Shown here: positions 30,185 through 38,362 of the stretch, piece by piece
Layout: each line of letters opens with the position of its first letter
Position numbering within the stretch: position 1 is the first letter of the stretch
Origin: a virus
Taxonomy: Duplodnaviria > Caudoviricetes
DNA: 51,351 nt
Virus record (IMG/VR): IMGVR_UViG_3300037482_000077
Coordinates: 1-51,351 of that record
Reading direction: 5' to 3' (one strand)
Notes under the pieces: generated by a model
What the model was told of the DNA's origin: nothing
The model's input: only the letters and a program-made list of their open reading frames with translations
Database searches by the model: none
Program-made: the position numbers and the translations under genes

Positions 30185-30194
30185 GCTGCCCCTG

Positions 30195-30227
30195 AAAAGA
30201 AAAAGGGCGACTCCGAAGAATCGCCCT
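30195..30227 (-). terminator. Intrinsic terminator closing the guide-RNA array
   Basis: AGGGCGATTC-TTCG-GAGTCGCCCT followed by TTTTCTTTT. Confidence 0.85.
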
Positions 30228-30236
30228 CTGTTTTCT

Positions 30237-30525
30237 GCCGTTTTCGGCCCTTGCCAAACCGTACTTCGCCAGGCAATGCCACGCATTGCTCGGCCACGCC
30301 ACATGATGCTAACTGCATCGGGTAACAGCCATCGGCCGCTATCCGCTGTTTTCAGCCCTGGCCGCTCCGAGACATGCCTCGGATCGCAACGACATGCATC
30401 GCCCCGCCGAGTGGTGCGCTAACCGCATCCCCAAGCGCCAGATAGACGCTTGAGGCTGTTGTCAGCCCGTGCCGTGCCCCGCAATGCCCTGCCCAGCAAT
30501 GCCGTACCGCGCGGAACCAAGCCGC
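30237..30525 (-). ncRNA. Array of three ~110-nt putative guide RNAs built of (GGY-like)+NN pentamers, each capped by a conserved hairpin
   Basis: Pentamer tracts at 30469-30523 (11), 30359-30408 (10) and 30251-30300 (10); caps GGGCTGACAACAGC, GGGCTGAAAACAGC and GGGCCGAAAACGGC with a compensatory stem change. Confidence 0.8.
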
Positions 30526-30533
30526 GAGGTCAA

Positions 30534-31022
30534 TCAATCCTTCACATCAAACCGCAAGCGCCGCGCCTTCCGCGCCTGCTGCGACAGGAACGAGAGCCGC
30601 GCGATAGCGTTCGCGTTCTCCCGCGCCTCGTCATGCGAGAGCGCGCTGCGATCCACAAAATGCAGCCGGCGCCCCATCTTGCGTAGCTCCGACTTCACGC
30701 GGCGCATGCCGTCCTGCATCGCGAACGCCGTCTGCTTCGCCGGCTCGACGATCATGTAGCCCTGCCCCGGCACGGCGCGCAGGCACATGGCTTTCTCTTC
30801 CAGCAGGAAGGTCGCCAGTGCGTCAACCTGCGACAGCAGCGACAGCCGCCAGCTTTCGTACTCCTGCGCCGTGATCCGGCCTTCAGGCTTCTGAAGACTC
30901 ATCGCGGCCTGCATCTCGTCGTGCGGGACAATTTGCCCGTAGGTGTACTTTTTGCCGAACAGCTCGGCCGCCGCGTTCTTCCATGGCGGCAGCAGCGACA
31001 GCGACTCGTCTTCGTTGCCCAT
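30534..31022 (-). CDS. Accessory protein of the RAMP/pentamer-array cassette, function unknown
   Basis: TGATG-coupled to the RAMP gene; LRAVPGQGYMIV wing-like motif; basic helical C-terminus. Confidence 0.75.
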   Translation of the reverse strand: MGNEDESLSLLPPWKNAAAELFGKKYTYGQIVPHDEMQAAMSLQKPEGRITAQEYESWRLSLLSQVDALATFLLEEKAMCLRAVPGQGYMIVEPAKQTAFAMQDGMRRVKSELRKMGRRLHFVDRSALSHDEARENANAIARLSFLSQQARKARRLRFDVKD

Positions 31023-31594
31023 CAGATCACCTCGACATCAAAGCGCCCGAAGCGCGGGCGGTAGGTACCGATGCCGATTCTACGGCCAGCCTCTTCAACC
31101 ACGCGGACCAAGTCGCCGCGGTCGATCACGTCTTCCATGAACGCGACTTCGAATTCCGCCGCCCACTTCAGGAAGATCGGCCGGCATCGCATGATCTTCT
31201 TGCCGGCCACATTCACCCCGCGCACGTCTGCGAACTGTGTTCCCGCGGCCCACAGTTTTTCCTTCTTTCGCGGACCGTCGTATTCGAGTTTGGCGCGATC
31301 AGTCAGCACTTGAACCGCCTGTTTGATGGTCTTGCCGAGCCGATGAATCTTGCCGGCCTCCGCGACGCATCCCTCGAAGTTCAGTGCCGGGATGAATGGG
31401 CCAACGTCGTCCGCGTAGTACATCGATGCCGACCACTCGGACTGCATGAGCCACAAGTAATCATCTTCGGACTTCTTGCGCTTCCCACTGACCGCCTTGT
31501 GCGCTTTCGTCAGTTCGTGCAGCGGATTGGCCAGTGTTTCGGCCTGCATCAGCAACGGCGACGTGCCGGTGATCCTGAATTTGATCGTTTCCAC
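31022..31594 (-). CDS. Stand-alone RAMP (Cas7-like) RNA-binding protein
   Basis: IKFRITGTSPLLM (RRM beta1), PFIPALNFEGCV (cf. P.IPgsslKG), thumb-like DVRGVNVAGKKIMRCRP, C-terminal Gly-rich loop GIGTYRPRFGRF. Confidence 0.75.
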   Translation of the reverse strand: METIKFRITGTSPLLMQAETLANPLHELTKAHKAVSGKRKKSEDDYLWLMQSEWSASMYYADDVGPFIPALNFEGCVAEAGKIHRLGKTIKQAVQVLTDRAKLEYDGPRKKEKLWAAGTQFADVRGVNVAGKKIMRCRPIFLKWAAEFEVAFMEDVIDRGDLVRVVEEAGRRIGIGTYRPRFGRFDVEVI

Positions 31595-31653
31595 GGTTAG
31601 CTCCTGCTCGATGGCCTGCTGTGCGGGCGACGTGCCCTAGCGCCATAAACAGG

Positions 31654-31681
31654 ATTCTACTACCTGTTACGGTAGTGTCAA
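31654..31681 (-). promoter_or_regulatory. Sigma70 promoter of the RAMP cassette with an internal palindromic operator
   Basis: TTGACA-CTACCgtaacaGGTAG-TAGAAT; further CTACCG half-sites toward the XRE gene. Confidence 0.75.
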
Positions 31682-31747
31682 TATCTTTTGCGAGTGCTAC
31701 GCTACCGCTATAGACAAAATTTCTACCGGCCGTAAAGCGAGGCGAAA

Positions 31748-31969
31748 ATGAGCGACATGATTACCGGGCAAAAATTACGCGCCATCAGGGCGCTCAAGGG
31801 CATCACCCAGGCAGAACTGGCCGCCTCTGCCGGCGTTTCTCCCACTGCGATTGCCGAGTTCGAGACCGGCAAGCGCGACATTCGTGCATCGACCGTCGCC
31901 AAGCTCTGCGAGGCGCTCGGGGTGTCGGTGACCTACAAGGTTGATGGGACTGAGATCAGCGGTCCATAG
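31748..31969 (+). CDS. XRE-family HTH regulator, divergent from the RAMP gene
   Basis: LRAIRALKGITQAELAASAGVSPTAIAEFETGKRD. Confidence 0.9.
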   Translation: MSDMITGQKLRAIRALKGITQAELAASAGVSPTAIAEFETGKRDIRASTVAKLCEALGVSVTYKVDGTEISGP

Positions 31970-31972
31970 CCG

Positions 31973-32362
31973 CTAACCGCCGTAGCGCGCTTGAATTTCT
32001 GTGAGCGTCAGTTTCACTATGCCAGCCGGGGCCTGCTTGCTGCTGCCGTTTTCGAGCTTCAGCGCATACGGCAACGAGTTCGTGCAGAAGATCAACGCGC
32101 CATCCATTAGCCGTGTCGTCGCGACCGCCGAGGCAATGCGCCCGATCGTTCCGCCTCCGCTCTTGTCGGTCGTGGTGCTGGTTGTGACGTTGGGGGCGCC
32201 GTGGCCGATTACGAAATTCGCCCTGAATCGCCCAGTATCGACTGGGGATTTTTTCACCATGCCGGAGAACGCCTCGAGCATGATTTTTCGCACGCCCGTA
32301 TCGGCCTGCCCGTTCGCCCTGGCAACGAGCCGCGACAGGTCCAGCGAGAATTTGCCGGCCAT
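31973..32362 (-). CDS. HK97 gp10-like tail completion protein
   Basis: SPVDTGRFRANF and NSLPYALKLENGSSKQAPAGIV motifs. Confidence 0.9.
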   Translation of the reverse strand: MAGKFSLDLSRLVARANGQADTGVRKIMLEAFSGMVKKSPVDTGRFRANFVIGHGAPNVTTSTTTDKSGGGTIGRIASAVATTRLMDGALIFCTNSLPYALKLENGSSKQAPAGIVKLTLTEIQARYGG

Positions 32363-32364
32363 GG

Positions 32365-32724
32365 TCAGCGCCTGATCTGCACGGTATGCAGCACCGCGGT
32401 TCCGGCCGGCGACGTGGTATTGACGCTGACCACGCCGTATTCGGTCGCGCCGACCAGAATGCGGTCGTCTGGCTCGGGGGCGGTGACGCCGGCCGGTGAC
32501 AGCAACACGTACTTGTCGCCGCGCTGGATCATCGAGCCGTCGATCTGCTTGGTGGCGTAGTCGAACACCGCGCCGCTACCGAGCTCGTCCGTCACCGTCA
32601 CCGCCGCCGATCCGGTCGCCGGGTCATACGCGCCGGCCGTGCGGTGGCGCACCGTCACGGCTTGGCCGAACTCGACGATCAGTTCGTCGGCGACGGCGGC
32701 CAGTTCGGTGTAGTCGAAACTCAC
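32365..32724 (-). CDS. Head closure/head-tail joining protein
   Basis: GAYDPATG, IDGSMIQRGDK; position in the operon. Confidence 0.8.
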   Translation of the reverse strand: MSFDYTELAAVADELIVEFGQAVTVRHRTAGAYDPATGSAAVTVTDELGSGAVFDYATKQIDGSMIQRGDKYVLLSPAGVTAPEPDDRILVGATEYGVVSVNTTSPAGTAVLHTVQIRR

Positions 32725-33152
32725 TGCGCAAGCTCCAACAGATCTATTCCGTTGCCGCAGTCCGTCTGGAACACACAGGCAACCGCTACCGCCTCATGCG
32801 CCCGCCGTCCGAGGTACATGGCGGCCTCTGCATAGTCGCGGCCAGAGCCGAACGCACAGCGCGACTCCTCGATGGTCAGCGGGAATGGCCCGGTTGCGTA
32901 GGATTGAATCCCGCTCTTCGTGATCACGATCAGCGTCGCCTCATCGTCTCGCGCCTTCGCCGGAAACCTCTCAGGGTCTGCGCCAGACTTCCACCACTCT
33001 CGCATTTCTGCTCCAACGTCGTAGTTTCCAGTGATGGCCAGAAGCGCACTGCCGTGCCGCTGGATCTTTGTCACGGTGCGAGCGATGCCGCCGCCCGTCG
33101 TCGCGCGTTTGTCAGCCGCCAGAATTCGCCCGTCCCACGCGATGACAGTCAT
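32721..33152 (-). CDS. Ntn-hydrolase (HslV/proteasome beta-like) protein
   Basis: M-T-V-I-A-W-D-G...AADK N-terminus and AFGSG motif. Confidence 0.7.
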   Translation of the reverse strand: MTVIAWDGRILAADKRATTGGGIARTVTKIQRHGSALLAITGNYDVGAEMREWWKSGADPERFPAKARDDEATLIVITKSGIQSYATGPFPLTIEESRCAFGSGRDYAEAAMYLGRRAHEAVAVACVFQTDCGNGIDLLELAQ

Positions 33153-37942: not shown

Positions 37943-38362
37943 TCAGTCCTTCGCCAGCCAGGCCGAGAACGTGATCGACGGCGTGGTGCCATCGACCGCA
38001 GTGCTCAGCCGGACATAGCGATAGACCGTGCCATTTTGCTCGTTGCGGAACGGCACCACGAAGCGGCCGACCGCGGTGTCGGCGTCGCCCGGGGCGGTGA
38101 CGTTGCCCATGCGCGACACGGCGAGCTCCACGCTGCCGCTGGTCATGGCGGCGACGTTGGAGCCTTCGAGCGAGATCACGTAGTACTCGTCGGTCGAGGC
38201 CACGTCGATGCCGGTCACGTCGATGACGAGATGACCGCACACCAGCCCGGCGCCGAGGTCCAGGATGGTCGCGCCGACATCGGTCTGCGCGGTGGTGTGG
38301 GCCGCCGACGCCTCGAGCAGCAGCGCGTTGTCGTAGGTGAATTGCGAATACAGGTTTGCCAT
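37943..38362 (-). CDS. Capsid decoration/cement protein
   Basis: Follows MCP; YRYVRL motif. Confidence 0.7.
   Translation of the reverse strand: MANLYSQFTYDNALLLEASAAHTTAQTDVGATILDLGAGLVCGHLVIDVTGIDVASTDEYYVISLEGSNVAAMTSGSVELAVSRMGNVTAPGDADTAVGRFVVPFRNEQNGTVYRYVRLSTAVDGTTPSITFSAWLAKD

Follow-up and report, generated by a model that had tools for sequence, protein, structure and literature searches.

A VIPR cassette in a temperate tailed phage carries a guide that fits a related phage's neck gene perfectly and the carrier's own neck gene partially. The cassette likely silences its cousins' copy of this gene during co-infection or superinfection. We give this reading a probability of about 0.75. 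Its part on target class, that guide 3 would be directed at the orthologue of a virion gene in a relative, is well supported by the comparison of alleles. We infer the remaining parts, namely expression, binding by Vipr, a shared host and the sparing of self.

The window, by which we mean the whole stretch analysed (51,351 bases), is a single virus record. It is a temperate tailed phage and carries terminase, capsid and tail genes along with an integrase, a repressor-like gene and Bet/Exo recombination genes. The guide-3 site in the neck gene and the repeat array about 2 kb downstream of it are both on the minus strand. The interval from the neck gene (phrog_169) to the tail terminator gene begins with a divergent HTH gene and a promoter consensus. 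These are followed by genes for proteins of 190 aa and 162 aa, three pentamer arrays that each close in a similar hairpin, and a terminator (Table 1). The original prediction had called the flanking gene gp10-like. The Pfam HK97-gp10 match is weak (E 0.07), and the closer identity is the neck1/tail-completion family.

Table 1. Features of the cassette and its flanks (positions in the window)
Feature	Position	Strand	Evidence
Neck1/tail-completion gene, 129 aa; orthologue in relatives is the predicted target	31973..32362	-	phrog_169 E 1.5e-37; homologues
Guide-3 self site, neck gene codons 23-33 (GVRKIMLEAFS)	32264..32296	-	17/20 informative bases match
Small Cro/CI-type HTH gene, divergent from vipr; cassette member, present in L001-L003 too	31748..31969	+	Pfam HTH_3 E 8e-17
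Predicted sigma70-like promoter consensus upstream of vipr, TTGACA-16-TAGAAT, 11/12	31654..31681	-	
vipr, 190-aa RAMP-like guide-binding protein	31022..31594	-	PDB 36PP SUSP1 Vipr E 4.8e-38 full length; phrog_4652
vap1-like accessory gene, 162 aa	30534..31022	-	Homologues immediately downstream of vipr in Escherichia phage Alf5 (H10, H61) and Medea1; phrog_5926
Predicted vrRNA 1: 11 pentamer units and tail hairpin	30454..30523	-	
Predicted vrRNA 2: 10 pentamer units and tail hairpin	30345..30408	-	
Predicted vrRNA 3: 11 pentamer units, of which the first is non-canonical and the last has a probable linker as NN, and tail hairpin; decodes V-V-R-K/N-V-I/M-L-D/E-T-F/L	30237..30305	-	
Intrinsic-terminator-like hairpin at cassette end	30195..30229	-	
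Whole insertion (HTH, vipr, vap, array)	30187..31993	.	Missing from close relative, with 30186 directly joined to 31994 in its contig (run X2 record 9)
Tail terminator gene, downstream flank; adjoins neck gene in L004	29771..30184	-	

The VIPR discovery preprint describes GGY/NN guides that skip one target base with a wobble bias, silence on either strand without a PAM, and target satellites and rival prophages (bioRxiv 10.64898/2026.04.26.720920). Its criteria are 9-16 pentamers of GGY/NN or a related consensus, and YNNNG variants are reported (10.64898/2026.04.26.720920). In the SUSP1 and P. fulva systems, as the available parts of the two preprints describe them, each Vipr protomer holds one pentamer and presents NN for pairing, every third target base is skipped, and transcription is repressed without cutting (10.64898/2026.04.26.720920; 10.64898/2026.04.26.720927).

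We compared the cassette with this description. By phmmer, the 190-aa protein matched SUSP1 Vipr (PDB 36PP) over residues 2-189, and it retains the equivalents of R138 and R179. It is about 40% identical to the Viprs of Felixounavirus-type phages and 48% identical to that of Medea1. The vap1-type gene follows vipr directly, as in Escherichia phage Alf5 and Medea1. Next to vipr is a guide array of three GGY/NN units of 10-11 pentamers with a degenerate position 1, and a similar hairpin lies 3' of all three units. Pfam and PHROG profile comparison gave no nuclease family match in the cassette, which holds HTH, vipr and vap only, and no Rfam family fits the array. We concluded that the locus is a VIPR moron, most likely of type II. 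The inter-guide spacers (30453-30409 and 30344-30306) fold into additional hairpins (z -2.6 and -3.2 with tails) that are possibly processing signals. Vipr homologues annotated as hypothetical are also present in the tail-tip region of Pseudomonas phage Medea1 and in the immunity region of LESphi2.

Three other phages (L001-L003) carry HTH-vipr-vap-array cassettes at other insertion sites, with Viprs 81-84% identical to this one and with the same kind of hairpin 3' of the units. These cassettes (L001 3624-5860, L002 3626-5410, L003 754-2370) lie within virion operons, among head genes or before a neck gene. Their guides number 1 to 5, and in L001 the array is preceded by an additional small ORF. 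In all four clade proteins, the residues H17 and D177 that read G1 in SUSP1 Vipr are Q and T. We found that repeat position 1 is G in 74 of the 104 units across the clade. Degenerate repeat motifs were reported previously (10.64898/2026.04.26.720920 and the available part of 10.64898/2026.10.21.760802). The relaxed first repeat base accompanies Q/T at these two positions, a residue link that we found stated nowhere in the available VIPR preprint text. The change marks a variant clade as a mechanistic detail and is not a published typing criterion. The final dinucleotide ahead of the tail (for guide 3, in the unit at 30255-30251) is AA in 6 of 10 clade guides, compared with 6 of 94 inner units, and is probably a fixed linker to be omitted from target prediction in this clade.

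Unit 3 (30305-30251, minus strand) reads CATGT GGCGT GGCCG AGCAA TGCGT GGCAT TGCCT GGCGA AGTAC GGTTT GGCAA, which gives the NN series GT GT CG AA GT AT CT GA AC TT AA. The self site (32296-32264, minus strand) reads GGC GTG CGA AAA ATC ATG CTC GAG GCG TTC TCC in the frame of the neck gene. When we re-derived the claimed self-match from the letters, 7 of 11 dinucleotides and 17 of 22 bases agreed, in frame and with the skip falling on the third base of each codon. This was the top site in the genome for guide 3 at a 1-nt skip. Skips of 0 and 2 gave only 15 and 14, and a skip of 3 gave 15 with the array itself excluded. Within the window, 17/22 was reached by 38 of 2000 dinucleotide-order shuffles (about 2%) and by 19 of 2000 base shuffles. 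The match is best only at skip 1. The caution in the original prediction that the self-match is only suggestive was sound, as guides 1 and 2 show self-matches of the same size (17/22 and 16/20). Because the last AA is probably a linker, the self-match is better read as 17/20, that is 85% identity instead of 77% with the last unit, on either side of the 80% cut-off used in the VIPR papers. The mismatches over the informative bases are one G.T-type wobble and two true mismatches, one of which is an A-C mismatch in the last informative unit but one, close to the guide 3' end. Self-derived residues were not enriched at the guide-3 site (2/12, P 0.23), and selection for escape of self was not significant.

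We found that the orthologues in related phages fit guide 3 better. Scored on amino acids, the phage's own protein fits the decoded guide at 7/10, and of its 10 closest neck homologues 9 exceed this value: two score 10/10, four 9/10 and three 8/10. The remaining one is worse (5/10). The relative's allele that had been predicted, VVRKVMLETF-like, is present as exactly VVRKVMLETF in the neck orthologues P0004 and P0009 (10/10, from protein sequences only, in which Arg and Leu codons are not read). Every one of the three self mismatches in the first ten codons is corrected in orthologues. When the homologues of the three self-matched genes (359 proteins) were scored, guide 3 reached 10/10 and its 3000 shuffles at most 8, and guides 1 and 2 topped out at 7/10 and 6/9, values inside the null. 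The self-match was the reason for choosing the neck set; otherwise this protein-level result for guide 3 is not circular.

We also looked for the target at the DNA level. The database pattern search proposed with the original prediction returned nothing in viral_contigs, where the full patterns of units 3 and 2 and a core of unit 1 had 0 matches; guide 3 had no exact match there over either 20 or 18 bases, and the phage of P0002 was not found in that collection. The exact 18-base core of guide 3 occurred 15 times in metagenomes, 11 times in genomes and not at all in viral contigs. The highest of these 26 is L004 (21/22). The other 25 are unrelated, score 18-20/22, and in some cases repeat one sequence. 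L004 is a 49.5-kb phage contig whose neck protein is 60% identical to that of this phage, whose head-to-tail gene order is shared and whose neck gene adjoins the terminator gene. At the orthologous neck codons, the first 10 dinucleotides of guide 3 match L004 at 20/20 bases, or 21/22 with the terminal AA. No vipr gene was found in the 15.6 kb of L004 examined. With uniform base frequencies, 20/20 is expected by chance about 9e-8 times per 49.5-kb contig. The GC content is 55% in L004 and 64% in this phage. L004 was found using the pattern itself, so a DNA-level shuffle is circular for it, and it is the single DNA-level perfect target (n = 1).

The position of the match is also consistent. Among the 167 loci examined, all seven DNA sites at 17/20 fall at the same neck codons, skips other than 1 gave at most 17/22 in neck loci, and 80 more distant neck loci scored 6-18/22 at the site. 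The gapped code with the skip on the wobble base, which the original prediction had read from the array, is the published VIPR rule (10.64898/2026.04.26.720920), and L004 follows it at 20/20 with skip 1. The claim that the guide is insensitive to synonymous escape stands in part: the skip falls on codon position 3, but silent escape is still available at Arg and Leu codons. We did not find the location of the self site in the adjacent gene to be what gives the match its weight, which comes from the orthologue alleles.

Adjacency is not general in the clade. The guides of L001 and L002 have no match in their flanks (one L001 guide was called from a single unit and is uninformative for this comparison), and the guide of L003, whose cassette lies beside a phrog_169 gene, has no match in that locus (19/36). 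Targeting of the adjacent gene as a general rule is thus unsupported by L001-L003. The self-matches of the other two guides also look like chance. Guide 1 matches a PAPS-reductase-like gene (+49549; 17/22, equalled by 105/2000 shuffles) and reaches at most 7/11 in 120 homologues. Guide 2 matches the gene after the capsid gene (+38213; 16/20, equalled by 136/2000 shuffles), and its mismatched column is never corrected in 120 homologues. On 38213-38242 (+), guide 2 lies on the antisense strand with the skip at codon position 1, and three of its 4 mismatches are at synonymous positions. Guides 1 and 2 thus serve as a control, since their self-matches are equally good and do not improve in orthologues. 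Guide 2 and the guide 1 core had no exact match in viral_contigs.

These results bear on whether the fit is coincidental, with guide 3 having another, unsampled target and resembling a common neck-protein helix motif by accident. The self-matches of guides 1 and 2 are equal in size and look like chance, and random exact 18-base matches are common (25 of 26 unrelated), as this explanation expects. We nevertheless consider it very improbable. The correction of all three self mismatches of the first ten codons in orthologues argues against it, as do a null that stays at or below 8/10 in 3000 shuffles and the confinement of the motif to the close subfamily, the 80 distant loci scoring 6-18/22.

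We also considered and rejected a target in the host chromosome. An 18/20 site was present in 6 of 401 genomes of one presumed host order, one of them the seed genome, compared with 2 for a reversed control. A neck homologue was found in 1 of the 401 genomes, with the allele ACRKITLETF, which fits guide 3 poorly.

Sediment run X2, which bears another study code than X1, the likely source run, contains pieces identical to this phage, the array among them, together with the contig of a close relative. The relative is 96% identical downstream and 95% identical upstream of the cassette, and the junction in its contig leaves out exactly the cassette. In the neck gene, the two are 95% alike upstream of 32277 and at most 81% alike between that point and the cassette, with 35 differences over 189 nt and with 32182-32277 too diverged to align. 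The second half of its guide site translates as LETFRSAVMKS, and the listed upstream changes agree with P0002. Its allele would thus be VARKIMLETFR and would match guide 3 at no more than 18/20, an upper bound with five upstream differences unlisted, which is one base above self. Should this allele be that of P0002, both of its mismatches would be of the wobble type (G.T/U.G), compared with one wobble and two true mismatches in self. Runs X5-X7 gave no sequence over the guide-3 site.

Two further features of the relatives concern the surrounding genes. The 3' two-thirds of the neck gene (31994-32277) is at most 81% alike in the X2 relative against 92-96% in the flanks, which suggests a recombined tract reaching approximately from the guide site to the cassette. 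An HslV-family peptidase gene (32721-33152) is a second insertion; the X2 relative lacks it (joint 32713-33148), and L004 has another small gene in its place.

The presence of a nearly matching site in the carrier itself raises the question of self-targeting. Guide 3 may be a relic or a self-regulator that was made against an ancestral neck allele of the phage's own (VVRK.MLETF-like) and now damps the late tail genes of its carrier, for instance in the lysogen, or is decaying. Site and array are 2 kb apart and self still matches at 17/20. At the positions of G and A in this phage, the sisters P0002 and P0003 retain V and T, so that the ancestral allele fitted better. Both sisters, however, share the phage's I where the guide specifies V, and the perfect allele occurs in more distant branches of a neck tree that is small and weakly supported (4 of 20 inner branches starred). 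Published surveys of VIPR guides also found no self-match at 80% or above (10.64898/2026.04.26.720920), and in the available part of a preprint on VIPR competition, where guides are directed against relatives' vipr genes and vrRNAs, self scores lie below non-self scores (bioRxiv 10.64898/2026.10.15.759431). We regard this explanation as improbable.

The cassette-free relative suggests a homing-like alternative, in which the cassette targets cassette-free alleles of the gene next to its insertion site and recombinants with the cassette and a resistant neck tract are favoured in mixed infection. The X2 relative fits such a history, with its nearly identical flanks, its divergence from the guide site to the cassette and its precise lack of the cassette; if it has the P0002 allele, its wobble-type mismatches would contrast with the two true ones in self. 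The phage encodes Bet/Exo-like recombination genes, and free-standing homing endonucleases provide a precedent (PMC2988022, available part). Against this, type II VIPR silences and does not cut, so no break would drive conversion, and mosaic boundaries are common at morons. The unmatched guide of L003 beside its phrog_169 gene and the unmatched flanks of L001-L002 likewise speak against it, and wobble tolerance is not reported in the available parts of the VIPR papers examined. We think it rather unlikely that the cassette is such a homing-like agent of exclusion, and equally so that it is in full an RNA-guided kin-exclusion element that accepts G.T wobbles in close kin, moves together with a resistant neck tract and spreads by silencing instead of cutting. 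Kin exclusion is compatible with the silencing of cousins, and both can hold.

According to our preferred reading, the silencing of cousins, vrRNA3 would guide a Vipr filament to the template strand at codons 23-32 of the rival's neck gene. A roadblock there would likely also lower expression of the downstream tail genes of the late operon. The cassette has a predicted promoter and terminator of its own, and expression in the lysogen would thus be expected. The phage's own allele would escape through its two true mismatches, including the A-C near the guide 3' end, which is the least certain step. The role given to the A-C mismatch draws on the SUSP1 structures, in which target engagement starts at the guide 3' end according to the available part of the structure preprint (10.64898/2026.04.26.720927). 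That part holds no data on mismatch or wobble tolerance (10.64898/2026.04.26.720927), and no seed weighting was used in target scoring in the available part of the competition preprint (10.64898/2026.10.15.759431).

We compared the cassette with known systems, using the available parts of the sources. Like the type II VIPR of SUSP1 (10.64898/2026.04.26.720920; structure 10.64898/2026.04.26.720927, PDB 36PP), it has a Vipr homologous over its full length, a vap1-like gene directly downstream, an array of guides of about 10-11 pentamers with a structured tail, a 1-nt skip, and a predicted target that is coding, wobble-aligned and non-self. Unlike in SUSP1, the first repeat base is relaxed, H17/D177 are Q/T, a divergent HTH gene is present, the tail is a short hairpin as predicted by folding, and the predicted target is the neck gene of a related full phage and not a satellite recombinase. 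The Pseudomonas fulva prophage clade is likewise borne by temperate phages, has 3 vrRNAs with vipr and vap1 and targets other prophages, but mainly their lysis-lysogeny regulators and other VIPRs, whereas here the predicted target is the orthologue of the cassette-adjacent gene (10.64898/2026.04.26.720920). Solo and native vrRNAs directed at relatives' vipr genes or vrRNAs also have wobble-aligned targets in related phages and self scores below non-self; they target VIPR machinery or satellites, whereas guide 3 is predicted to target an essential virion gene that the carrier also owns (10.64898/2026.10.15.759431). T-even free-standing homing endonucleases and marker exclusion resemble the cassette in that a mobile cassette acts on a relative's allele hundreds to thousands of bases from the insertion site (PMC2988022). 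The endonucleases are guided by protein and promote gene conversion through cutting, whereas no nuclease was found in this cassette and adjacency was not seen in three related cassettes.

The system, its code, the wobble alignment and the inter-phage role are previously published, and we do not report a new mechanism. We found no description in the literature of a VIPR guide against the orthologue of the carrier's own virion gene, although the target tables of the VIPR preprints, which lie outside the parts available, may hold one. The finding extends the predicted VIPR targets to a virion gene common to carrier and rival. It also provides an allele series of one essential gene, in which L004 is perfect, a co-occurring relative would have two wobble-type mismatches, and self has two true mismatches. 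The clade points to a link between a relaxed repeat position 1 and altered G1-reading residues, and the allele series bears on how VIPR separates self from non-self without a PAM.
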